Positions 13,434 to 35,764 of a DNA stretch of 43,510 nt are shown piece after piece (the first letter of the stretch is position 1; the number at the start of each line of letters is the position of its first letter). The stretch is from Escherichia phage vB_EcoP_ZX6: sequence record MZ424864.1; one strand, written 5' to 3'. The position numbers were made by a program, and so were the translations under genes. The notes under the pieces are model-generated. The model saw only the letters and a list, made by a program, of their open reading frames with translations, searched no databases and was not told the origin of the DNA.

Positions 13434-14021
13434 TTACCAGGTGTGAACTGGGCTATTGCCCTTACTCCCCCATAAGTCATAGGAGGATGCCATGCTCTGC
13501 GTAGCTGACGCTCCGCTCCCAGGCGAAGAGCTGCCAGAGTCTGAAGATGACGCAGCGTTACCGGCGTACTGCCCAACAGCGGATGCCCCGACACTCAACA
13601 GTGAGTTAAACATGTTATCGTACGGGTCCTCCATATCCATGTTAGCCAGGCCGCTATCCACGGCCTTATCTGTCATTAGACGGAAGCCCTCTTCCTGAGT
13701 TGCCTGCTGGTCACGCACGCTGACCTCTTGCCTCCCGGCTACAGTGTTAACCGTGGCTACGGCGTCTTTAACAGAGGCTCCCACAGTGCCGGAAGCTGCT
13801 GCCTGCAGCCCTACTTGGCTCTGTGCCTGCAGCTTCTGCTGCTGAATGTTAAACAGAGACACCTCAGTCCGGTCCCTGGACTGGGCGCGCTGTAGCGCGA
13901 TGTCGTTTAGCTGTTTGGCTGTCTGTTGAATCACAGCCTTGTTCCTGGCCTTGGACACTTCAATCTGAGCACCCTGCCCCAGAACGGTCTTAGCGGCCAT
14001 GGCCGCAACCATCCACCACAT
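13434..14021 (-). CDS. internal virion protein B (T7 gp14-like)
   Basis: 195 aa, immediately downstream of tail tubular protein B (stop/start adjacent); helical Ala/Gln-rich composition. Confidence 0.6.
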   Translation of the reverse strand: MWWMVAAMAAKTVLGQGAQIEVSKARNKAVIQQTAKQLNDIALQRAQSRDRTEVSLFNIQQQKLQAQSQVGLQAAASGTVGASVKDAVATVNTVAGRQEVSVRDQQATQEEGFRLMTDKAVDSGLANMDMEDPYDNMFNSLLSVGASAVGQYAGNAASSSDSGSSSPGSGASATQSMASSYDLWGSKGNSPVHTW

Positions 14022-14022
14022 A

Positions 14023-16371
14023 TTAAATTCTCCGTCTGCGTTGGTTGTAGCGCAGGATGTACGAGATATCCAGCACGTTCAGTTCCATAGAACCGTCAGT
14101 AAATAGTGACACCTCGGTTGTGTCTGCGTTGGTACGACATGGCACGGTAATCGTAGCCAGGTCCATACGCAGGGCCTGCCCAAGCGTCAGCTCCTTTGAG
14201 TTCATCAGGATACCGGTTAGTTCTCCACCCCAATTAACGTCCCGCGGGGTGTCTAGTACCTGTACGTCGAAGTGCCCAGAGTTACGTACTGCCACGTCCA
14301 GACGCAGCAGGCGCACATGCCCACTTCCCACGAGCTTGTCATTCTGGTCCCGTAGAATAGGCGCAGTTAGCGTGAACGTACTACGGTAACGTCTCCCGAT
14401 TACATAAGTGCCATCAGGTACGCCGCGCACAACCCGTAGGGTGTTCTCCCCGGCAATCTCCTTGATGCCAACCTCAGTAGGCCCCATAGGGTTGCTGGGT
14501 AAGTACGTTAGGATAAGCTCTTCCTTGTAGTTGTCCGCCCACCCAACCGGGCGCAATACCGCCGGAACAGTGAACACTCCGCCCTGCACTTGAACTTGCT
14601 TCTGCAAATCCGAGTAGGCTTCGCGGTATTCTGAGCCCAGCTGATAACCTTCACGCGGGTCCATAGACACAATCAAAAGCTTGTTGCTGGGACTGGGCCC
14701 TTGCATGTACAAGAACACCTCATCCTCCAGCGCCTGTACACTCAGGATTGGATACGGGAACGACCACTTATGCCACGCCGCCTGCATCTTCGCGCCGTCA
14801 CTTCCGCCCCACATGAACTCGTAGACCAGCAGACTATTACGCTCTCCAGACATGCGCGAGAAGGCCATATTGGTGACACTGGAGTTTTGCATCTGCAATA
14901 CCCTGCCTGGGATATACCGAGGTAGGTGCACCGTGGCATCCTGCGTAGTGTACTGCGCCGCGGTGTAAGGCGATGGGATTAGCTCCAGAATACCAGCGTA
15001 GCTGTCGTTGCGCTTGTTCGGGTATATTACTGTCTGCCCAGCCATTACCGGGGTAACACGGCTGTCACAATCGTAGGTGCTGGTAATGCTAATGCTTGCG
15101 TTGGTAGGCGTAAGCACTGCAGAGCCCGGCACAACAGCCTGCATGCTGTTAGCGAATAGGACCAGGTCTCGGTTGAACTGCACAGCGGTGCGGTACACAG
15201 AATCCTGCGCAGACGCAGAGCTAATGCTGATACGGTCCGTATCCAGCAGAGATGTCACGGTAGAACGATAGAAGCGCTGATACAGGCCAGAGGCCGACAT
15301 ATCCACGGAGCTACCACTAAGCAGGACCAGGCGGCCCTGAAAAGCTGCGATACCAGTGATGTAGCCATTCTCTATGAAACCGGGATTGCTGTTATTATCG
15401 TCGTTACCTGCTAAGCGCCCCTCCCAATCCCGCGCAATAATGTTGTCGTCCGCAGCAAGCTCTCTGGGCATATTCGTAATCTTGGTGATACTGCCGTATG
15501 CCCCAACCTCATACCAGGTACGTTCGCTGTAATTGAACTGATACCATGCAGTCTCCGACGAGGCCGTACCTACTCGGCACATTGCCCCATCGGCTTCTGC
15601 GGGGAGCTGTGCAGGCAGGTCCTGTTCCTGGGGAACCCTGCTCTGCCCTGACGCCACTGCATACGTAGCACCAGAAGACGTACTCACTACTAAATTAGGT
15701 AGCCCGGCTATGTACATGTACGCCCCAAAGCCGACTACTGTACCCCCAGCCGCTGTGATAGCCGCACCTATACCATACCCGTTAGGGTCTCCATTAATAA
15801 GTGCGTTTATCACGAATGACGCAGATGCCCACTCTGCTGACTCTGTGCCACTACTGGCGTCAGGTACGTTATAGTACCCTGTGACGGATCCCCCCGACCA
15901 AGTCACCGTAACCTCCCAACGCTTCTGGAAAGCCGCAGCCTTGACGTAGAAGAATCCAGTAGTGCTGGGGTCAATACGCCCAGTATTGTCCACGGCAGTG
16001 ACCGGAGCCATCTCCATGTTTAAAATATAAGTCAGCCCCGCAATGCTGGCGGTCTGCAAGGAGGTCTGCCCTGCTGTTGCAATAAAGTACGGGTCGTTGC
16101 CCGAGTTAACGACGGTCTTTCCATGCTTAGCCAGCAGCCACCAGTTACCGTTGCTGGTGTTAATCAGCAGGTGCCTACCGTCAGTGCCACGCTCGACGTA
16201 TTCAGTGAACAGGGAGTCAAGCCCCAGATTATCAATCGTACTCTCCCAGACAATCTCGCCCGGCGGTCTACGGCGGATACCCGAAACCGGGTCGCTTAGC
16301 ATGTTCAGCTGCGCCCCCAGCTGCCCGGGCTGGCGCTCTCTTGGAACCTGCTGGGAGACCCCCTGCAGCAA
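14023..16371 (-). CDS. tail tubular protein B (T7 gp12-like)
   Basis: 782 aa; size and position match gp12 of T7-group phages. Confidence 0.85.
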   Translation of the reverse strand: MLQGVSQQVPRERQPGQLGAQLNMLSDPVSGIRRRPPGEIVWESTIDNLGLDSLFTEYVERGTDGRHLLINTSNGNWWLLAKHGKTVVNSGNDPYFIATAGQTSLQTASIAGLTYILNMEMAPVTAVDNTGRIDPSTTGFFYVKAAAFQKRWEVTVTWSGGSVTGYYNVPDASSGTESAEWASASFVINALINGDPNGYGIGAAITAAGGTVVGFGAYMYIAGLPNLVVSTSSGATYAVASGQSRVPQEQDLPAQLPAEADGAMCRVGTASSETAWYQFNYSERTWYEVGAYGSITKITNMPRELAADDNIIARDWEGRLAGNDDNNSNPGFIENGYITGIAAFQGRLVLLSGSSVDMSASGLYQRFYRSTVTSLLDTDRISISSASAQDSVYRTAVQFNRDLVLFANSMQAVVPGSAVLTPTNASISITSTYDCDSRVTPVMAGQTVIYPNKRNDSYAGILELIPSPYTAAQYTTQDATVHLPRYIPGRVLQMQNSSVTNMAFSRMSGERNSLLVYEFMWGGSDGAKMQAAWHKWSFPYPILSVQALEDEVFLYMQGPSPSNKLLIVSMDPREGYQLGSEYREAYSDLQKQVQVQGGVFTVPAVLRPVGWADNYKEELILTYLPSNPMGPTEVGIKEIAGENTLRVVRGVPDGTYVIGRRYRSTFTLTAPILRDQNDKLVGSGHVRLLRLDVAVRNSGHFDVQVLDTPRDVNWGGELTGILMNSKELTLGQALRMDLATITVPCRTNADTTEVSLFTDGSMELNVLDISYILRYNQRRRRI

Positions 16372-16396
16372 GCTCTGTATAGTACCTTCTAATGAA

Positions 16397-16885
16397 CTAG
16401 CTATGATACACCTCCAAGCACGCTCTTAGATATGCTGCACGAGCATCCAGCATGCACTTAAAAGAACCAATGTCAATCTGACTTGAGCGTCCTGGCTTAC
16501 GGATACGTACCCGCCATACATTACGCCGCGCGTACCAGCTGAAACCCACAGCCGATACACATAGCTGCCCCTTTCTAACGTTAGCCTGAGGGGTTATTGC
16601 CTGCAGACTATCTGGGTGGGGGTTGTATTTATTACCGTCTATGGGGTCAATAACTAAACCTTCCGGTATAGGGCATTTGTGCTTTAGCATCCACACGGCT
16701 TGGTGTACCAGCACTCTGCGTTTCCCTATAGATACCGACGGGTACTTACCCGTCATACTTCCCGCAGGCTTACCTGCAACTGCCTGACAGTTACCCTGGC
16801 GCTTACTAGTGTACGCCCAACGTAACATAGTGGGGCTGGAGGTATCGAGCACCAGCGCGGCGCTTACCATCTCAAACTTACCCAT
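16397..16885 (-). CDS. HNH homing endonuclease with AP2-like DNA-binding domain
   Basis: 162 aa. HNH core ..HQAVWMLKH..IDPIDGNKYNPHPDSLQAITPQANVRK.. and a C-terminal AP2-like segment ..WYARRNVWRVRIRKPGRSSQIDIGSF... Inserted between tail tubular protein A and B genes. Confidence 0.7.
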   Translation of the reverse strand: MGKFEMVSAALVLDTSSPTMLRWAYTSKRQGNCQAVAGKPAGSMTGKYPSVSIGKRRVLVHQAVWMLKHKCPIPEGLVIDPIDGNKYNPHPDSLQAITPQANVRKGQLCVSAVGFSWYARRNVWRVRIRKPGRSSQIDIGSFKCMLDARAAYLRACLEVYHS

Positions 16886-16894
16886 AACCTCTCC

Positions 16895-17455
16895 TTAAAC
16901 CATAAAACGAGCGTGGCGGATTCTGCGTGCAAAGCGTGTCTTACGGGTGCTAAACTTCTGGTTGCGCAGATGCTCACGCAGCACCATGCTCTTGTAACGC
17001 TCAGCTTCCTGTGCGTAATTAGCGTAGTTGCTGTCACCACCCAGGTCGTTGAGATATACCTGCGCAGTGGTGTAGTTAGCCACCCACATAGCCGCGTGCT
17101 CCGGCAGGTCCTCAAAATCCAAGTCCAGGACTATTTTGAGCTTAACGGAGCTGTCGAAATATTGGTTCTGCTCCATTAGGTCGTACAGGTTCCCATCACG
17201 TACTCCGTATTTGGAGTCGGAACCAGCATCGTATACGGCCAACTGGTTCCACGGCACTTTAATAAAACCGTCAGTAGTAGGCGTAACTTCACGCTCCACC
17301 ACGTTAAACCAGAACCCCGTGCTGAGTAACCCCCGACGGTTGCGTGCAAGTGCAGAGCGGGCTAGCCCCGCACTTGGGTTGCTGGTAGATATGTCCATAA
17401 CGCGAGACTCCCCCAGGGCTTCCAGCGTCATGTTAATGGCTTCGAGTTCTCTCAT
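16895..17455 (-). CDS. tail tubular protein A (T7 gp11-like)
   Basis: Track ORF 16895..17530 begins with a GTG inside the upstream terminator hairpin. The likely true start is the ATG at 17455, preceded by AGAGGAA with a 5-nt spacer, giving ~186 aa (T7 gp11 is 196 aa). Confidence 0.8.
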   Translation of the reverse strand: MRELEAINMTLEALGESRVMDISTSNPSAGLARSALARNRRGLLSTGFWFNVVEREVTPTTDGFIKVPWNQLAVYDAGSDSKYGVRDGNLYDLMEQNQYFDSSVKLKIVLDLDFEDLPEHAAMWVANYTTAQVYLNDLGGDSNYANYAQEAERYKSMVLREHLRNQKFSTRKTRFARRIRHARFMV

Positions 17456-17501
17456 ATTTGTTCCTCTATTAAAGACCCCTTGGACCCTTAAGACAGGGAC
17501 A

Positions 17502-17541
17502 AAAAAAAAGCCCCCGGCACCCGAAGGCACCAGGGGCGCGT
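17502..17541 (-). terminator. intrinsic (rho-independent) terminator downstream of the capsid gene
   Basis: Minus-strand RNA GCGCCCCUGGUGCC-UUCG-GGUGCCGGGGGC followed by nine U. GC-rich ~12-bp stem with a UUCG tetraloop. Sits between the capsid/60-aa ORF and tail tube A, like T-phi of T7. Confidence 0.75.
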
Positions 17542-17542
17542 A

Positions 17543-24931: not shown

Positions 24932-25381
24932 CTAGGCGTCAATGCACTTACCTCGGTGTTGCTCGTACAGTTCTGAGTACTTATCGGACTTAGCAATGTC
25001 CTGCTCCAGCTTATCCTTGTTCCCGGCGCGCAGCCGATACTTGAGTCTATTTCCCAAGCAGTATCCATAGAACTGCTCTTGCGTCATACTGCGTGCAATC
25101 ACCTCGATTGCCTCCAGGTCCGGGAAGAACTGGTAGTGCTTAGGTGAATTAACTGCGTCCGAAGCAGCTCCACTTGTCGAATAGAATAGCCGGAAGAATT
25201 CCGCGTTCCAGCTGGTTCTGCACTCATCTAAGGTTAGGAGCCCGTCTTCTACGTGCGTCACTAATCTGGGTGTGCTGGGGTCTACCTGCAGCTGCCCACA
25301 AACATCCGCCCAAACACCCCCTACGTGGCTATCTTTGCGCACAACCAAATCACCTACGTGGAATTTAGTGGGTTTAATCAT
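24932..25381 (-). CDS. DUF3310-like protein
   Basis: 149 aa. ..NSPKHYQFFPDLEAIEVIARSMTQEQFYGYCLGNRLKYRLRAGNKDKLEQDIAKSDKY.. matches my recollection of the DUF3310 signature (PKHY..IE..GN.KY..RAG.K). N-terminal KFHVGDLVVRKD motif is shared with ORF 36739..37209. Confidence 0.5.
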   Translation of the reverse strand: MIKPTKFHVGDLVVRKDSHVGGVWADVCGQLQVDPSTPRLVTHVEDGLLTLDECRTSWNAEFFRLFYSTSGAASDAVNSPKHYQFFPDLEAIEVIARSMTQEQFYGYCLGNRLKYRLRAGNKDKLEQDIAKSDKYSELYEQHRGKCIDA

Positions 25382-25800
25382 TTAATAGTCTCCCGTGCTT
25401 TGCGTCGTGCCCGGGCCTTGCGGGCCTTGAGCTTCTGTGCCTGTGCTAACTCTTCCGGCGTACGTACTGTGTAATACAGCATATCATAAGGCTCTTTGCG
25501 AAGATATGCCACCATGTTCTCTAGGAATTGCAGGATGCCCTCTTTATCCTGCATCCCGTAACCGGCCCACCTAGCGACCGCGTTATACACCTTGCCCTCT
25601 GCCCCGTTCGCTCCACGCGATAATACTCCACGTATGTGCCCTGTGAGGTGGTCGTGATCGAGTACCATACTACTGGCGCTTCCGCGGGCGGCGGAGGTGT
25701 CTATAGGACGTTTAGTAAGAGCACAAACACCACCCTGCTCTTTTAATATCTTTAAGGATACCGCTCTTACCTGTCCCCTCGTTATTCTACGTGTCGCCAA
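25378..25800 (-). CDS. recombination endonuclease VII (Holliday junction resolvase)
   Basis: 140 aa. ..GGVCALTKRP.. and ..VLDHDHLTGHIRGVLSRGANGAEGKV.. match the T4 endonuclease VII-type H-N-H/zinc motif; basic C-terminal tail. Confidence 0.75.
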   Translation of the reverse strand: MATRRITRGQVRAVSLKILKEQGGVCALTKRPIDTSAARGSASSMVLDHDHLTGHIRGVLSRGANGAEGKVYNAVARWAGYGMQDKEGILQFLENMVAYLRKEPYDMLYYTVRTPEELAQAQKLKARKARARRKARETIK

Positions 25801-26249
25801 GTTACCCCCTGTAGCATCAAGCCTATTGCTGCCTTAGACATACCCAATCTACGCGCGATTGCAGACACACCCCAATCCCTGTCCCCCGGTAAATACATAG
25901 TCCGTAGATAGCGTACAGTATCCGGGCACAATTTAACTTTACAGTGCAGACCGTTGTCCACTTGATGTATTACATTAGAACGCCTAGTGACCCACTCTAG
26001 ATTGCTAGCCCTATTGTTTTCCTTATTCCCATCTATGTGGTTAACTTCTGGAAAATTGTGTGGGTTAGGTACAAAAGCCTCAGCAACAGCCCTATGCACG
26101 TAGACGTTCTTGTATATAGTACTTACATACAGATAACCTCCTCCCTGTCTAGCAGGCTTTAACACTTTGCCGGACGGCCCTTTTATCTCACCGTTAGCAT
26201 TTACCAAGTAATCTTTCCTGCCATTAACTAGCGGAACCCAACTTACCAT
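25782..26249 (-). CDS. HNH homing endonuclease
   Basis: 155 aa. ..HRAVAEAFVPNP..VNHIDGNKENNRASNLEWVT.. is an HNH motif, with an N-terminal NUMOD4-like segment. Confidence 0.7.
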   Translation of the reverse strand: MVSWVPLVNGRKDYLVNANGEIKGPSGKVLKPARQGGGYLYVSTIYKNVYVHRAVAEAFVPNPHNFPEVNHIDGNKENNRASNLEWVTRRSNVIHQVDNGLHCKVKLCPDTVRYLRTMYLPGDRDWGVSAIARRLGMSKAAIGLMLQGVTWRHVE

Positions 26250-29251: not shown

Positions 29252-29461
29252 CTAGCGATTCTTAAGTGCGGACTTAATGCCTGCAGCCGCGGCTGCCGCC
29301 AGGATTGCCAACAGCAAAGCTACACCGCCGTAGAACGGAAGCAGTACCCACCACCAGGACCAGGCGATAACGCCAGTCAGTTTCAAGGTTACAAAGATAA
29401 GGCCCAGTACAGAGCAAATTCCCATTTTCATCATCACCTCTATATTATTTAGAACGACCAA
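29252..29461 (-). CDS. small membrane protein (two predicted transmembrane helices)
   Basis: 69-aa ORF (true start possibly the internal MMKMG): ..ICSVLGLIFVTLKLTGVIAWSWWWVLLPFYGGVALLLAILAAAAAAGI... Lies within the replication module. Confidence 0.45.
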   Translation of the reverse strand: MVVLNNIEVMMKMGICSVLGLIFVTLKLTGVIAWSWWWVLLPFYGGVALLLAILAAAAAAGIKSALKNR

Positions 29462-29948
29462 CCCAACGACCAGCTATCTTACTGCACAATTCCAAGAAGT
29501 CATCGTGGTGCATGTCAGACTTCATGTAGTTGCACGTAGGGCAGCAAGGCACACAGTTGTGTATGTGATAACCTATAGATGAATCCTTTCTATCTATTCC
29601 GTTTGTAGGTACTTCCGACTTGCGAGCCCAGCGACCGCCGCCAATCTCTCGGTACGTACTAGGCGCTGCGCCGCAATAATAGCAGTCCGCACTTACCAAT
29701 GCTTTGGCATCTTCTTTAGTAATGCTTCGGCCTAGTTTGGTGCTGTACTGCCACACCTTGTTAGCGGAGGCTGTCAAATCGGCCAGCTTATTAGGCGGTG
29801 TTCGTCCCTTGTTCTTCTCCCTCTGCCGCAATTTAGTTTGGCATCCACAGTGACCAAGACCGCCGCGCTTACTGGTGTTGAATATCTTAGTTCTGATTGC
29901 CTCAAACTCTTTACCGCAGTAAGGGCAATCCCAGGTATACACCACCAT
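29445..29948 (-). CDS. HNH-type endonuclease with Cys-rich zinc-binding motifs
   Basis: Track ORF 29445..30047 overlaps the upstream gene. Internal ATG at ~29948 gives MVVYTWDCPYCGKEF..HCGC.. and a C-terminal ..GIDRKDSSIGYHIHNCVPCCPTCNYMK.. HNH-like fold. Confidence 0.55.
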   Translation of the reverse strand: MVVYTWDCPYCGKEFEAIRTKIFNTSKRGGLGHCGCQTKLRQREKNKGRTPPNKLADLTASANKVWQYSTKLGRSITKEDAKALVSADCYYCGAAPSTYREIGGGRWARKSEVPTNGIDRKDSSIGYHIHNCVPCCPTCNYMKSDMHHDDFLELCSKIAGRWVGRSK

Positions 29949-29970
29949 ATCCCTAAATCTCTTACCTGTA

Positions 29971-31023
29971 TCAGCCTTTGGTTTTATCTCTCGCACACCA
30001 CCTTCCGGAATCGTCAAGCAGCATTGGGATGATTTGAGGACATCCATCTGTAATCACCATACACCCTAGAATCGGCTTGCTTCTTGACAGCTTTCCGTAA
30101 GCAAACGCCAGACTCTTATTGTCGATTAAACAACCGCAGTGAGCACCAAAGTATAAAGCAGCGCTGCTCGCGGCATACTGTATATCTAACTTCCCATGGA
30201 AGTGTCCAATCACCATAGACTTACGTTCATGGGCTGCGTTGAGCAGCAGGTCCCCAGATACTTGATGTTGGAATCGCACAGTACCCAGCGGAGTATTCAA
30301 ATCCCAAGCATCACCCCAACTCCACCCCGGTGCCCCGTGCTCCGGGAACAGGATGTCCCGGTACTTCTTAATGAACTGTACAGGGAGTCCGTGAGCCTTG
30401 GCCCGGCGGTAGACAAGGGAGCCGTGATTAGAATCACACAGGAGCATGTTAGGAAACAGGTCGTGCAGTTTCTCCAGGCCGAGCTTGGCCTTCTCTAATT
30501 CCACACCAGCGCTGTCTAACTCCGGACTGCTATCGTGAAAGCTAATAGCGTGCCCATCCGTCTCGTCGCCTATCTGCACCACAATGTCTGGGCAGTACTC
30601 ATCCCGCACAGTGCGTAAAAAGTCATACGCGTCCGGATGTGTGTACGGCTCGTGCAAGTCCCCAATAACAAGCACACGCCGACATGTTTCCGGTACAAAG
30701 GTATCCCCAATATCATCCGTTGGGGAAGGTTGAATTAGTTTTCGGGCTTGCATCAGGGCATTGTTAGCCTTTGATTTACTACCATTGTTATCCACGAAGA
30801 TGCTGCGCCAGTAGCGCACAAGCTGGCGGGACACTTGCGGGGCCGGAATACCCATCCCCACAACCGTACGTATTGTCCGAGCACTAATATCTTCGCCAGG
30901 AATCTTACCAAATGCTAGTACATACTCGTACGCCCAGGCAGCTTCGGCGTTACTTTGGAAGCGCTTTAAAATCGCCTGGTGCTGCTCTTTGGTGAATAGT
31001 TTAATCAAACTAATTTTAGCCAA
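29971..31023 (-). CDS. calcineurin-like metallophosphoesterase
   Basis: 350 aa. ..VLVIGDLHEP.., ..VQIGDETDGH.., ..CDSNHG.. and ..GHFH.. match the ordered metal-binding motifs of the PPP/Mre11-type phosphoesterase superfamily. Apparent TTG start preceded by AGAGAGG. Confidence 0.7.
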   Translation of the reverse strand: MAKISLIKLFTKEQHQAILKRFQSNAEAAWAYEYVLAFGKIPGEDISARTIRTVVGMGIPAPQVSRQLVRYWRSIFVDNNGSKSKANNALMQARKLIQPSPTDDIGDTFVPETCRRVLVIGDLHEPYTHPDAYDFLRTVRDEYCPDIVVQIGDETDGHAISFHDSSPELDSAGVELEKAKLGLEKLHDLFPNMLLCDSNHGSLVYRRAKAHGLPVQFIKKYRDILFPEHGAPGWSWGDAWDLNTPLGTVRFQHQVSGDLLLNAAHERKSMVIGHFHGKLDIQYAASSAALYFGAHCGCLIDNKSLAFAYGKLSRSKPILGCMVITDGCPQIIPMLLDDSGRWCARDKTKG

Positions 31024-31184: not shown

Positions 31185-31406
31185 CTACTCCTCTATAAAC
31201 TTATACTCCCCAGGAAAGAAAGTGACGCCGTCCCCCGGTCTACTTACTACCAGTCCAGGGTAGCTTAGTTCTATCTCCCCAGTAACAGGGTCGAAGAATA
31301 GAACCGTGTGTCTTGTACCTGGGGTGAAGTAGGCTGCATACCGCGGGTCTATCGGCTCAGGTCCTAGGTCCATCAACTCCACAGTACTACCAGACTTTAT
31401 ACTCAT
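31185..31406 (-). CDS. hypothetical protein (73 aa)
   Basis: Small ORF whose start overlaps the DNA polymerase stop; Pro/Gly-rich. Confidence 0.45.
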   Translation of the reverse strand: MSIKSGSTVELMDLGPEPIDPRYAAYFTPGTRHTVLFFDPVTGEIELSYPGLVVSRPGDGVTFFPGEYKFIEE

Positions 31407-33805
31407 TCAACCTTCTCCTTACTGTACATGCTCGTACCCATCTCAGCCTCTGCTGGGAACGGGACCTCACCAATGATGCCATAGTTAGGCCAGAGCTGGT
31501 GGATACGTTTAGGTGCGTCCTCCATGCACTGCTTAACCAACAGGCTCGCCTCACGTCCAACCTCCGGGTTGGCGCTGTCCAGATACAACGCATCGTGCAC
31601 GTTCGTAATCAGGCACACCTGATTGTCGAACCAGTCACGGGCCAGGAGGGCACGGAGAACCATACCGGCAGCCACTGCCATCAGGAAGAATGCTTCCCCC
31701 TGGCACCAGTAGTTAGCCATCTCGGTTTCCTTGTAGTCCATGACCTTCTGCTTACGCTGCCCAGGCACAACCTCTTTCCACTGCTCCTTCTGACGGAAGC
31801 TATAGCGAGCACCTGCTGGGCTGGTCCAAGTCCCGATGCGGTAGATGCGGTAACTGCCATCGTCAGCTTGTTCCCGGTACATGCGCCCCTCTGCACCAGT
31901 ACGCTCTACTTCTTCCTTGACAACAGCGCGGAAGCCAATTGTTTGCGGGAACAGCGCAGCCTCGTTGTCCAAGAAAGCCTGTGCGAATTCCACCGTACAT
32001 CCAGTAGCAAACGCAATCCCCTTAGCCGTAGCGCCATACTGGGCTGCAAAGCTAGGAGCCTTAATACCTGTGCGCATTGCCTTCCAAAGCGGATGCAGCT
32101 CGTGCTTCTTGTTGTGGCAGCGCTCATATACTTCTTCATACGGCAGTTCCTCACGGAAAGCTAGGCGGTAACAGTGCATATCCGTACCACTCTGCAGCAG
32201 TCCCAGCAGTTTCTTGTCACCAGTGTGGACGCAGGACATAACTACTTCCAGTGCCGAGTAGTCAACCTCAGTGATACGTCCGTTGTCCCCGAATCTACTG
32301 GTGAACACCTGCTTCACCTTGGATTTAGCCACACCGTCGCCATCCTCATCCGGGCGGGGTAGGTTCTGCAGGTTCGGGTTAGAGCTACTCAAGCGCCCGG
32401 TTACGGTGGCGCAAGTATTCAGCCGGTGGTGAATGATGCCGGAACCATCGGGACGCTCCGGGATTACGTACTGCAGCATCCCCTTCCGCTCTTTGACCTT
32501 ACCTTCTGCGTCAAGGACCTCTCGCAAATAGTAAGTGCCGGTATCCTTCTCCAGCGCCGCCAGCTCGTTCACCAACTTACAGAACTCGAACCCTTGGCGA
32601 GCCAGCGCCTCCATTGCGTCAGTGCTGGTGCTGTATACTGGCGTACCGTCCTGCAGGGTGCGCGCCTGTCGGAACTCTCCGCGCTCTGCGTACTTCTCCC
32701 GGATAACTTCCGGAAGCTCCTGGATGTTCACCAGGCCCGGGCAGAAGTAAAGGTCGTCTTCCCATTTAAGTTTCTCTTCCTCGGTATCGAGGCGGAATAC
32801 TTTGGGGAGCCCCTTGTTCTTACCCGCACGATATGTCACTACACGCCACCATCCGCCTTCCGTTTGAAGTTCTTGCATGTGCGTGTCGTGTACAGGTATA
32901 TAGGTGTGCGCGCCCTCTTCGTCCTCGTACTTATAGAAGTCGGCCTTGACGTACTGCGGCGGGTCATATGGCACCTTCTTGCGGTACTTGATAGGCCCGC
33001 CGTACACCAGTGCTGACATATGGAAGTCCGACCCGAAGTTGAAGTCAAGAGTCTCCGGCAAGTCCTTCGGGATGTACTGCTGCAGCTCCTGCTTAATCTC
33101 ACGGATACGCTGCTCCTGCTCCTCCTGGTTCTTGCGTGCAATTGGCATATTAACGAACAGGCCGAACCATTGACAATAGCTCCAAGCTAGTGCTGCCTCC
33201 ATTCGTTCATAGACATACTGCATCTGATTGCGTTGGGCGAATAGGGCGCATTGCCCATAGAAGCACAGCCCGGTATTTGGCACGTCACCGTTGACGAGGT
33301 AATCGTGAAGCAGGTACGGATCAATTTCGGAAGTACGCTTCCCTTGCTCCCATAGTATCTTCACACCATCAACTTTGTGCTGGCCACCCCATTTTGGGGC
33401 GGTCTCATCTAACCCAGGATACATCTCCTGGAAATCTGAGGCTATGTACTGCCCATGCTGCGTACAGTATACCCGGCCGCCGCGCTTTAGGAAGTCCTCG
33501 AAATGTTTCCGCTGGTAGGATAAGAACCAGGACACCTCGAAGCTGCTGTTGTGCGCGACTATCATAGTGCAGTGTTCTGGTATGGAAAACCACCTGTGGG
33601 GACCTGCGTTGTCTTCCAGGAACTCGGCCTTGCTGTTGAAGCGGATACTAAATACGTCCCCCATATGCAACTGCCCGGCGTCATCTACTGTGTCTATGCG
33701 ATATGCGCTTTCTACAACATAGTTATCGGGACAGTACGGGGATGCCACGTTGCCGTAATACTCAAAGTTCTCGACCTCTAAATCCACTATCATAATCTGG
33801 TACAT
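31403..33805 (-). CDS. DNA polymerase, family A, with 3'-5' exonuclease domain
   Basis: 800 aa. Exo motif MIVDLEVEN; pol motif A ..EVDYSALEVV..; motif B ..RTGIKAPSFAAQYGATAKG..; motif C ..ITNVHDALYL... Confidence 0.9.
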   Translation of the reverse strand: MYQIMIVDLEVENFEYYGNVASPYCPDNYVVESAYRIDTVDDAGQLHMGDVFSIRFNSKAEFLEDNAGPHRWFSIPEHCTMIVAHNSSFEVSWFLSYQRKHFEDFLKRGGRVYCTQHGQYIASDFQEMYPGLDETAPKWGGQHKVDGVKILWEQGKRTSEIDPYLLHDYLVNGDVPNTGLCFYGQCALFAQRNQMQYVYERMEAALAWSYCQWFGLFVNMPIARKNQEEQEQRIREIKQELQQYIPKDLPETLDFNFGSDFHMSALVYGGPIKYRKKVPYDPPQYVKADFYKYEDEEGAHTYIPVHDTHMQELQTEGGWWRVVTYRAGKNKGLPKVFRLDTEEEKLKWEDDLYFCPGLVNIQELPEVIREKYAERGEFRQARTLQDGTPVYSTSTDAMEALARQGFEFCKLVNELAALEKDTGTYYLREVLDAEGKVKERKGMLQYVIPERPDGSGIIHHRLNTCATVTGRLSSSNPNLQNLPRPDEDGDGVAKSKVKQVFTSRFGDNGRITEVDYSALEVVMSCVHTGDKKLLGLLQSGTDMHCYRLAFREELPYEEVYERCHNKKHELHPLWKAMRTGIKAPSFAAQYGATAKGIAFATGCTVEFAQAFLDNEAALFPQTIGFRAVVKEEVERTGAEGRMYREQADDGSYRIYRIGTWTSPAGARYSFRQKEQWKEVVPGQRKQKVMDYKETEMANYWCQGEAFFLMAVAAGMVLRALLARDWFDNQVCLITNVHDALYLDSANPEVGREASLLVKQCMEDAPKRIHQLWPNYGIIGEVPFPAEAEMGTSMYSKEKVE

Positions 33806-33806
33806 A

Positions 33807-34286
33807 CTAAACCTCTAAATATCCCAGAGAGTTGGCGGCTGCCGCCCTTGCAGCAGCAGCCTCTTCCAGGGAGGGGAATCTTCCCAAACGCACTTGCTTT
33901 CCGTCACGGTTTACGTATGCCGCCCAACGTTTTCGTCCGGCATCATAAGTCACCCCGGGAACGCCAGAACTGTTGCGCTTATCTATGGTTTTATTTCGAT
34001 TATTTAGTGTAACAGGAACCGCCCTGAGATTGTCGATACGATCATCTTCCCGGTTGCGATTTATGTGGTCTATAACGCACCCACTAGGGATCTCTCCGTG
34101 GTGCATTTCCCAAACAATCCTAGCACGTTTGTATGCCTTCCCATGCAATCCCACGACCCAGCGGTTATGGTGTCTTTCTAGGTATCCCGCCAACTTGCCC
34201 GGCTGACATGCGCCGTTCGGGCTTGTGTGGGTCCAGTATAACTTACCATCCTTGTACGTGAAGTGCTCTTTCCAATTCATTTCCAC
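33807..34286 (-). CDS. HNH homing endonuclease with AP2 DNA-binding domain
   Basis: 159 aa. HNH motif ..VIDHINRNREDDRIDNLRAVPVTLNNRNK.. followed by ..SSGVPGVTYDAGRKRWAAYVNRDGKQVRLGRFPSLEEAAAAR.. (AP2-like). Track start is GTG; ATG two codons downstream. Sits between helicase and DNA polymerase genes. Confidence 0.75.
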   Translation of the reverse strand: MEMNWKEHFTYKDGKLYWTHTSPNGACQPGKLAGYLERHHNRWVVGLHGKAYKRARIVWEMHHGEIPSGCVIDHINRNREDDRIDNLRAVPVTLNNRNKTIDKRNSSGVPGVTYDAGRKRWAAYVNRDGKQVRLGRFPSLEEAAAARAAAANSLGYLEV

Positions 34287-34483: not shown

Positions 34484-35764
34484 TCACCGGTTAATCTGAC
34501 CTTCGTCAAAGCGGCAACGACCCGGCTCGAATCCCACCTCGAATTGCAGGAGCGACTCTTTACCAGACAGTGCCATCTTGTTCTTCGGAGTACTGATACC
34601 GCGGACGTTTTGCATGTGCGGCTGCTCGTTTCTGTCCAAGCATCCCATCATAATAGCCAAGTCCAGGGCACCCTGTACGCCAATCTTGCTCTGCTTCATA
34701 GCGGTGAGCGGCGGGAACAGCATGTTGTAACCTTCGAGTGAAAGTTGCATAGTGCCTACAATAGCGCAGTCGTTCTCGCACCCAAGGATACGCAGCTCCT
34801 GCCAACGTGCTTCGAGGTTCTGGTGCTCGGTCTCCATAGTGCCGCCACGGATATTCGCCACCATGTCTATGATGATTACCGCCGGGCGCATCTCCTCCAT
34901 GAGCGTGGATATCTGGGCCATCGTCAAGGAGTGCGCAGCCTTAACACGAATCCGGTCAGCCCTGCCTACTTTCTTGAGGTAGGCTGGCACGAACTCTTGC
35001 TTACTGTGCCGGTCCTTAATCTCAGCCAGAGTCCAGTGCAGCGCCGCTTGATATACCCGCGGCACTGTGCGCGTCGCCGGACCCTCGTTAACAAGCCAGA
35101 GAATCGGGCGGTCCCCGTATACTTCCGGCTGCTGCTGCATCTGCTCAGCAAAATCCACAGCAATAGCAGCAAGCAGGCTGGTTTTACCAGAGTCCACAGG
35201 AGCAGCCACTGCGATACAGTCCCCGCCGCGTAGACCTCGGATGTTGCTAGCGAGTTGCTCGAACACACCAAGTTTAAGACCGCCGCTCTCGTCAGTCGCG
35301 GCAAGTATTTCGTCAACACTACCGCTCTCCCATTCAAGCAGCGACTCGTGCACCGCAGCGCCGTCACCGTACTTGCGCTGTAGGTGCTTCATTTCCAGCA
35401 GGTAATCAATCTCCTCGCCGTCTTGGTAGCGCTGCGTCAGCGCTGCTACCTCCCCGCTGTAGGCCAGCTCGTTCAGGGTCTGGACAATGCCCACCACAGA
35501 ATCCTGTGGCACGGCTTGTACTCCCCGCATAAGCTCGTCCATGATTACCCGCTCTTCCCGGGACAAGTGCCCAGCCCGGAGGTTGAGCATGCTCTGCATC
35601 GCATCCCACTGCACCTCCTGGTGCTCAGGGTACGTATTCCAGTACAGCCCCACCCAGTCCAGTAGGTTCGACGTGTCCGGCGCAAGCATGCTCTTGGGTA
35701 TCTGCTCTCGCAGTCGGTTCCACACCTTCTGTGTGCACATCGCACGAACAACTATTAGGTCCAA
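34484..35764 (-). CDS. replicative DNA helicase (DnaB-like)
   Basis: 426-aa track ORF with Walker A ..AAPVDSGKTSLL.. and a RecA-like core. Track start overlaps the primase 3' end by ~140 nt, so the true start may be an internal Met. Confidence 0.8.
   Translation of the reverse strand: MDLIVVRAMCTQKVWNRLREQIPKSMLAPDTSNLLDWVGLYWNTYPEHQEVQWDAMQSMLNLRAGHLSREERVIMDELMRGVQAVPQDSVVGIVQTLNELAYSGEVAALTQRYQDGEEIDYLLEMKHLQRKYGDGAAVHESLLEWESGSVDEILAATDESGGLKLGVFEQLASNIRGLRGGDCIAVAAPVDSGKTSLLAAIAVDFAEQMQQQPEVYGDRPILWLVNEGPATRTVPRVYQAALHWTLAEIKDRHSKQEFVPAYLKKVGRADRIRVKAAHSLTMAQISTLMEEMRPAVIIIDMVANIRGGTMETEHQNLEARWQELRILGCENDCAIVGTMQLSLEGYNMLFPPLTAMKQSKIGVQGALDLAIMMGCLDRNEQPHMQNVRGISTPKNKMALSGKESLLQFEVGFEPGRCRFDEGQINR

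Follow-up and report, generated by a model that had tools for sequence, protein, structure and literature searches.

Homing endonucleases that join an HNH domain to an AP2 domain are proposed ancestors of the plant AP2/ERF domains, and some siphophages are known to use HNH proteins as cofactors in packaging. In I-HmuI, the Asp that precedes the catalytic His acts as a metal ligand. A model of intronless homing, together with its hallmarks, has been reviewed (PMC2988022), and marker exclusion by homing endonuclease genes (HEGs) is established in the T-even phages (PMC2988022). Close KP34-like relatives have already been described as differing in their homing endonuclease content (PMC7013548, PMC6115819). 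Nearest to the genes described below are KP34 gp19, gp24, gp31 and gp36 and other annotated Drulisvirus HNH endonucleases, which belong to the same genus and occupy the same slots as the genes of phage ZX6. Specifically, KP34 gp19 is 60% identical to HNH4 of ZX6 and lies at the same helicase/polymerase site, and an HNH of the KP34 gp24 type is located at the phosphoesterase G-R-W site of HNH3. The Drulisvirus HNHs differ from those of ZX6 in that the shared slots hold differing sequence families, each linked to its own flanking allele.

The DNA that we analysed, referred to as the window, is a stretch of 43,510 nucleotides and represents the complete genome of Escherichia phage vB_EcoP_ZX6 (MZ424864.1), a KP34-like phage of the genus Drulisvirus, family Autographiviridae. 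It shares 90-97% identity over most of its length with more than 200 Klebsiella podophages of the KP34 type. ZX6 is named as an Escherichia phage, yet nearly all of its close relatives are Klebsiella phages. For its central 24.5 kb no record in the phage collection exceeded 96.6% identity, and ZX6 itself is apparently absent there. All long ORFs are encoded on the minus strand and follow the order early genes, primase, helicase, DNA polymerase, phosphoesterase, exonuclease, endonuclease VII, kinase, RNA polymerase, portal, capsid, tail tube A, nozzle (tail tube B), internal virion proteins, terminase, lysis genes and tail spike. A variable gene after the large terminase gene (3343-3888, minus strand, phrog_9732) encodes 181 aa in ZX6; its counterpart has about 180 aa in QH1, RCIP0087 and RCIP0046 and 124 aa in F19, KP34 and QL.

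An original prediction had named four HNH ORFs in this genome, two of them in intergenic slots between essential genes. Real ORFs were found at all four places, each on the minus strand (HNH1 to HNH4, Table 1), and the neighbours named for two of them were correct as well: HNH1 lies between tail tube A and the nozzle (tail tube B), and HNH4 between the helicase gene, here followed by a 51-aa ORF, and the DNA polymerase gene. The term intergenic is imprecise, since all four insertion points fall within the first or last codons of a neighbouring gene. No fifth HNH ORF was detected in ZX6 with 16 HNH or slot-specific proteins of relatives as queries and a family HMM run over all ORFs, and PHROG scans of ten unassigned or neighbouring ORFs yielded no extra HNH. 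The HNH ORFs have their own start and stop codons, with no in-frame fusion to host proteins. A group I intron or intein context was considered and ruled out, as the ORFs are free-standing and no Rfam family reached its gathering score anywhere in the ZX6 genome, leaving no match to an intron RNA.

Table 1. HNH genes of phage ZX6, their neighbours and related features. Copies are full-length copies in records, out of ~225 related records.
Feature	Position	Strand	Copies	Description
Terminase genes	3888-6046			
Nozzle / tail tubular protein B gene	14023..16404	-		first canonical start TTG 16371 (782 aa)
HNH1	16397..16885	-	17	HNH_3 (I-HmuI-type), 162 aa, weak AP2-like C-terminus
Proposed non-canonical coupled nozzle start	16402..16415	-		GGAGG 16415-16411, 6-nt spacer, ATA 16404-16402
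HNH1 codon 93	16607..16609	-		AGT (Ser); AAT (Asn) in all other copies; central Asn of H-N-N motif
HNH1 codon 81	16643..16645	-		CCC (Pro); CAC (His) in all other copies; aligns with I-HmuI general base His75
Tail tubular protein A gene	16895..17455	-		upstream neighbour of HNH1
Endonuclease VII (core resolvase gene)	25378..25800	-		restarts at TTG 25800 inside HNH2 3' end
HNH2	25782..26249	-	9	HNH_3, 155 aa, weak C-terminal HTH
HNH3	29445..29996	-	11	PacI-like HNH, 183 aa from GTG 29996; 167 aa from ATG 29948
Metallophosphoesterase gene	29971..31023	-		new C-terminal tail CARDKTKG* from HNH3 insert
DNA polymerase gene	31403-33805	-		5' ~650 nt (33150..33805) divergent, HNH4-linked; inner boundary approximate
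HNH4	33807..34280	-	15, plus 5 with a 66%-identical HNH in the same slot (KP34 gp19 type)	HNH_3 + AP2-like, 157 aa; earlier coordinates 33807..34286

The family searches separated the four proteins into two kinds. HNH1 (25.9 bits, E=7.8e-6), HNH2 (44.4 bits, E=1.3e-11) and HNH4 (62.9 bits, E=2.1e-17) scored above the Pfam HNH_3 cut-off of 24.8 bits, and in PHROG they also matched several families labelled 'HNH endonuclease'. A profile that combined the HNH1 family with HNH2 and HNH4 matched I-HmuI (1U3E) across the catalytic core (E=5.9e-14). The family profile was needed for this match; a single-sequence phmmer search of HNH4 against the PDB returned only noise and weak AP2 matches. HNH3 had no HNH match in Pfam, where only zinc-ribbon noise was found, and it matched PHROG 1035 (1.8e-25). 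The PHROG label 'endonuclease VII' is misleading for this protein, the conserved resolvase being the core gene at 25378-25800. The C-terminal half of HNH3 matched PacI at E=0.0012 as a single protein and at E=4e-9 (3LDY) with a 47-sequence family profile. Residues C89, C92, G117, I118, D119, R120 and Y127 as well as N131, C135, C136, C139, N140 and K143 are invariant in the 47 HNH3 homologs including ZX6. HNH3 thus combines two Cys4 zinc sites, a DR...GY...N...CN..K ββα-Me core and a fold match to 3LDY, as is characteristic of PacI-like proteins. For its AlphaFold model (pLDDT 84) PacI was the sole significant Foldseek match in the PDB (E=5.7e-6, prob 1.00), followed by weaker matches to Cas9 HNH, ScoMcrA, Gme HNH and EcoKMcrA. 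Judged by their sequences, and for HNH3 also by its modelled fold, all four ZX6 proteins are ββα-Me/HNH nucleases, three of them I-HmuI-like members of HNH_3 and one PacI-like. The prediction of HNH proteins thus holds for all four; HNH1, HNH2 and HNH4 are of one family, and HNH3 is of another kind.

Two of the proteins were also expected to carry AP2-like DNA-binding domains. HNH4 came just below the Pfam AP2 cut-off of 33.3 bits (32.2 bits, E=1.3e-7), and for HNH1 the match was weak (16.9 bits, E=0.008). Four of 12 family members matched AP2 at E<=0.01, and the family C-terminus showed a weak match to the plant AP2 structures WRI1 and ERF1.

Single-gene searches were run against 50,697 phage records, of which ~225 match the polymerase region. 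Each of the four HNH genes was present in about 4-8% of these related records, which include GenBank/RefSeq duplicates and near-identical isolates, so the counts do not represent independent events. Among the records listed, a relative carried at most two of the four genes, and two each were found in VLCpiA1n, BUCT790 and cmc20192. The closest copies come from different relatives, namely B1 for HNH1, QL or BUCT790 for HNH2, VLCpiA1g or RCIP0104 for HNH3, and RCIP0046 or BUCT790 for HNH4. Other HNH genes of the relatives occupy at least six further slots that are empty in ZX6. Junction alignments with 12-19 relatives revealed clean empty sites at all four insertion points. No private changes in motif residues were seen in HNH2, HNH3 and HNH4, and no stop codons in any copy examined. 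With each gene in 9-17 of ~225 records and clean sites where it is missing, the expected presence/absence differences between close relatives were borne out, and comparative alignment clearly showed that the relatives are not all identical at these loci.

The same distribution bears on the suggestion that the HNH proteins may take part in DNA packaging, where one or more of them would act as a terminase accessory factor as in HK97-like cos phages. The argument in its favour is the original suggestion itself. A distance of 10.3 kb separates the terminase genes from the nearest HNH gene, and the HNH families resemble I-HmuI and PacI. Relatives such as KP34 and F19 carry annotated direct terminal repeats, which are ends of the T7 type. 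Moreover, all four genes are absent from more than 90% of the relatives, and since these are viable, the genes are not needed for packaging. A packaging role is thus extremely improbable.

Identity profiles against 12 whole genomes showed that divergent tracts in the flanks are one-sided and sharply bounded. At the HNH4 site this tract forms the 5' part of the DNA polymerase gene. The most likely start of HNH4 is ATG 34280, where an ATGA joins it to the stop of the upstream 51-aa ORF, as annotated in relatives, and a single nucleotide separates the HNH4 stop from the polymerase ATG. In other genomes, the slot that HNH4 fills here, from the 51-aa ORF to the polymerase ATG, holds different ORFs that start at the same ATG. 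The DH...N...N motif of HNH4 is intact. Identities over the polymerase 5' tract are bimodal, with 19 records at >=91% and 206 records at 60-80%. HNH4 was found in 15 of the 19 records with the ZX6 polymerase 5' allele and in none of the 206 others (Fisher p=4e-20; the Fisher p-values given here overstate the evidence because the records are not independent). In F19 and RCIP0087 the tract is unalignable or ~70% identical, and the sequence beyond it is ~100% identical. Two of the four allele-positive, HNH4-negative records, QH1 (L002, ~34716-34750) and RCIP0027 (13887-13925), retain 35-39 nt of the HNH4 3' end adjoining the same polymerase allele, which indicates that HNH4 was lost there by deletion. 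The deletion in QH1 also takes the end of the 51-aa ORF.

A comparable arrangement was found for HNH2, whose ORF starts with the RBS and ATG that belong to endonuclease VII where HNH2 is missing. In ZX6, endonuclease VII has a new start at a TTG situated 19 nt ahead of the HNH2 stop, and its first ~315 nt (25486-25800) represent a divergent allele found only with the HNH2-type slot. All HNH2-positive records fall within the ZX6-type endonuclease VII allele (9/16 versus 0/~209, Fisher p=3e-12, overstated in the same way). A third class of genomes (L002, L007 and L008) contains an unrelated 231-nt ORF (77 aa, hypothetical) at the ATGG point before endonuclease VII, and in these genomes endonuclease VII keeps its ATG start. 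The motif of HNH2 reads NH...N...N, with Asn-His (VNHID, residue ~60) where I-HmuI and HNH4 have Asp-His.

The start of HNH3 is most likely GTG 29996, because its homologs carry an N-terminal stretch of ~17-25 residues upstream of the position of ZX6 ATG 29948; the 99%-identical P0012 protein is called at 183 aa. A mechanical ORF of 200 aa (to 30047) was ruled out as an extension into the phosphoesterase gene. HNH3 is inserted after the codons for G-R-W, six codons before the phosphoesterase stop, and it ends with GRWVGRSK*, the C-terminus that the phosphoesterase has lost to it. Two allele classes exist for the final ~800 nt of the phosphoesterase gene. HNH3 goes with one of these, and the same class is also found in genomes with a different HNH at the same point.

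A linked flanking allele, as expected of co-conversion, is thus present for HNH4 (polymerase) and HNH2 (endonuclease VII). It was not seen for HNH1, which is a clean indel with no linked flank divergence and for this reason lacks a co-conversion signature. We consider it likely that the four ORFs are free-standing homing endonuclease genes that have spread by intronless homing. Their homology and fold, patchy distribution, exact junctions, allele linkage and remnants, and the purifying selection described below, all enter into this reading, and the prediction of free-standing homing-type genes is strongly supported by the patchy presence, the clean empty sites, the linkage of HNH4 and HNH2 to flank alleles and the lack of intron RNA matches in the genome. 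By analogy with the T4 seg and mob genes, the enzymes would cleave target sites and thereby home. During co-infection with a HEG-less relative, the enzyme would nick or cut the DNA at a site within the neighbouring essential gene or adjacent to it, and recombinational repair would copy the HEG together with a stretch of flanking DNA into the recipient. The co-converted stretch would be the 5' end of the downstream gene, i.e. ~650 nt of the polymerase gene for HNH4 and ~315 nt of the endonuclease VII gene for HNH2, and its divergent allele would shield the HEG-bearing genome. In the case of HNH1, it is the insert that splits the conserved tube/nozzle junction. All four genes are tied into translation signals of their neighbours: HNH1 and HNH2 use the RBS and ATG of the displaced gene, HNH4 overlaps the upstream stop, and HNH3 has taken over the final codons of the phosphoesterase gene. 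Some observations speak against homing. A block transferred by ordinary recombination could also account for the linkage between HEG and flank allele, no linked divergence is seen in the flanks of HNH1, HNH1 of ZX6 is without its catalytic residues (see below), and HNH2 has Asn for the metal-binding Asp.

The use of neighbouring translation signals might also be seen as a sign that the genes are not purely selfish and benefit the phage, either by excluding co-infecting relatives or by DNA-binding regulation via the AP2 or HTH modules. Expression from these signals, as suggested by the gene arrangement, would be in line with such a benefit, as would the precedent of marker exclusion in T-even phages (PMC2988022) and the apparent retention and conservation of the HNH1 ORF even where catalysis is lost. 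Each gene is missing from more than 90% of viable relatives, so that no general benefit is required, and exclusion of competitors is homing viewed from the phage's side and hence not a distinct mechanism. We therefore regard a benefit to the phage as a quite improbable explanation, and homing remains our preferred reading.

Our analysis further revealed that HNH1 of ZX6 differs from all of its relatives in the active site. In the family alignment the catalytic D-H is present in every homolog at 32-76% identity and is D-P in ZX6. Ten of ten other phage copies contain DHIDGNKYNPHPDNLQ, and ZX6 alone has DPID...DSLQ; the catalytic D-H...N...N pattern is therefore broken in the ZX6 protein (DPID...DSL versus DHID...DNL) by changes that are private to it. 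A comparison with B1, the closest copy, revealed no synonymous and two nonsynonymous differences, CAC to CCC in codon 81 and AAT to AGT in codon 93, and the chance that two random amino-acid changes both strike the three residues of H-N-N is ~2e-4. Positions 81 and 93 correspond to the His that acts as general base in I-HmuI and to its central Asn. His-to-Pro as a trait of the whole HNH1 clade was ruled out, as His is found in the 10 other phage copies and in all distant homologs. Outside the ZX6 copy, the HNH1 family is under strong purifying selection (dN/dS 0.06-0.08 at dS 0.27). Since two motif residues, the His acting as general base and the central Asn, are gone, HNH1 of ZX6 is probably not an active endonuclease, and this copy is probably catalytically dead. 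Pro81 and Ser93 may also reflect a sequencing error at two separate codons. The prediction of HNH1 as a homing endonuclease gene accordingly stands for its family and its patchy presence and probably fails for the activity of the ZX6 copy (His81Pro and Asn93Ser).

The loss of His81 and Asn93 could indicate that the four genes are inert passengers, i.e. former homing endonucleases that no longer cut and are shuffled by homologous recombination and descent. The deletion of HNH4 in QH1 and RCIP0027 and the presence or absence of HNH1 without linked flank divergence point in the same direction. Yet the low dN/dS of HNH1 outside the ZX6 copy, the intact motifs and lack of stops in the copies of HNH2, HNH3 and HNH4 examined, and an insertion site kept across phages whose HNH proteins are just 54-76% identical argue against inert genes, and we consider this explanation improbable.

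The junction between HNH1 and the nozzle gene may bear on how a dead copy persists. In HNH1-less relatives the nozzle protein has 793 aa from an ATG, and the sequence TAA-GGAGAGGTT-ATG GCG CAA TCA TTA GAA comprises the tube A stop, the RBS and the nozzle start. HNH1 starts with the very RBS and ATG from which these genomes translate the nozzle, and the 486-nt insert replaces CGCAA. On the 3' side of HNH1 the nozzle frame of ZX6 reads GGAGG-TGTATC-ATA GCT AGT TCA TTA GAA (I-A-S-S-L-E-G), where the native start reads ATG GCG CAA TCA TTA GAA (M-A-Q-S-L-E-G), and the HNH1 stop TAG (16399-16397) overlaps nozzle codons 2-3. This junction is invariant in 11 phage copies. Seven HNH1 homologs with 54-76% identity on unrelated metagenome contigs are all located between Tube and Phage_nozzle genes. 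At the position of the nozzle start codon they have ATA, ATT (twice), ATC or ATG (three times), and GGAGG or GAGAGG always lies 6-7 nt 5' of that codon. The first canonical in-frame nozzle start shifts among codons 9, 12, 16 and 35 across the HNH1 family, and KpIITR008, a viable isolate, has no canonical nozzle start before codon 35. In the 11 phage copies, the codons from the ATA position to the canonical start differ by synonymous changes alone; such conservation could also stem from recombination with genomes that lack the HEG.

The best reading of this junction is that the nozzle is initiated at the AUA/AUU/AUC position, and initiation is probably coupled to translation of HNH1. Taken together, we tentatively propose, at somewhat less than even chance, that the HNH1 family took over the RBS and ATG of the nozzle gene, and that the nozzle now starts at AUA/AUU/AUC by means of the GGAGG within the last codons of HNH1 in a termination-coupled manner. 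Initiation at the AUA position would yield a nozzle N-terminal peptide (M/I)ASSLEGTIQSLLQGV. If the capture of the nozzle start is correct, HNH1 would be hard to delete or truncate, and this would explain why the dead ZX6 copy carries active-site missense changes and no frameshift, nonsense mutation or deletion. In HNH1-bearing genomes (loci L013-L019) the annotated nozzle starts at a TTG (782 aa) or at an ATG (752 aa) and is thereby 11 or 41 codons shorter than the 793 aa of genomes without HNH1. The short annotation is probably a systematic mis-call of the start codon caused by the ATA at the native start position; under start capture, the annotations of the nozzle gene in the HNH1-bearing records examined would lack 11 to 41 codons.

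A scan for promoters and terminators around HNH1 detected only the known terminator 3' of the capsid gene and no internal signals. This strong terminator-like hairpin (17510-17537, minus strand, 12-bp stem, T-run) lies 3' of the capsid gene and a 60-aa ORF and corresponds to a terminator in the annotation of KP34. Downstream of it follow tail tube A, HNH1 and the nozzle, and no promoter or terminator signal was found among them. Some relatives have a further HNH gene in the slot that separates the small post-capsid ORF from tail tube A; there, tail tube A is annotated with 504 nt, and with 561 nt where that slot is empty, including ZX6 (17456-17542); the loci compared were L001 26446-27466, L011 30259-31279 and L002 16949-17970. 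This difference is a hint that the start of a second structural gene may have been captured in the same way. The starts of HNH1 (16871-16885, ATGGGTAAGTTTGAGATGGTAAGC) and HNH2 (26235-26249, ATGGTAAGTTGG) both contain ATGGTAAG and encode M-V-S. Such common 5' ends may result from shared ancestry or from a preference for insertion after ATGG.

The presence of multiple variable HNH genes is ordinary and expected, has already been published for KP34-like phages, and the ZX6 ORFs are already annotated as HNH endonucleases. Of modest added interest are the dead HNH1 copy and the capture of the start signals of an essential gene. Homing at these sites would explain why therapeutic Klebsiella phages have mosaic blocks with sharp boundaries in their polymerase, endonuclease VII and phosphoesterase genes, and the junction flags a probable systematic mis-annotation of the nozzle start in HNH1-bearing genomes. 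Furthermore, dead and live HNH1 copies just two codons apart offer a compact natural system for testing whether a mobile gene can make itself undeletable through the start of an essential gene.

When compared to described enzymes, HNH1, HNH2 and HNH4 share with I-HmuI, the intron-encoded nicking HNH endonuclease of Bacillus phage SPO1, an HNH_3 core followed by a separate C-terminal DNA-binding module. Unlike I-HmuI, the ZX6 genes are free-standing without an intron, the C-terminal modules are AP2-like or HTH-like, and in HNH1 of ZX6 His75 and the central Asn are replaced by Pro and Ser. HNH4 resembles the HNH-AP2 homing endonucleases in joining an HNH to an AP2-like C-terminal domain, with the difference that its AP2 score is just under the Pfam cut-off and that of HNH1 is weak. 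HNH3 shares with PacI (3LDY) the core CxxC...G(I/V)DRxDSxxGYxxxN...CxxCNxxKS, Arg in place of the usual His and, according to its model, the same fold. It differs from PacI in that it is a mobile insertion carried by a phage, has an additional Cys-rich domain at its N-terminus and lacks a methyltransferase partner, and there is no evidence of TTAATTAA specificity for HNH3. Similar to MobE, SegF and SegG of T4 (PMC2988022), the ZX6 genes are free-standing between essential genes, their ORFs overlap the neighbours, a segment of the flanking gene is co-inherited, and their occurrence among relatives is patchy. Unlike these T4 genes, they belong to a phage of the Autographiviridae. Finally, HNH1 and HNH2 use the start codon of the very gene that they displaced, a feature that is not described for the T4 genes in PMC2988022.
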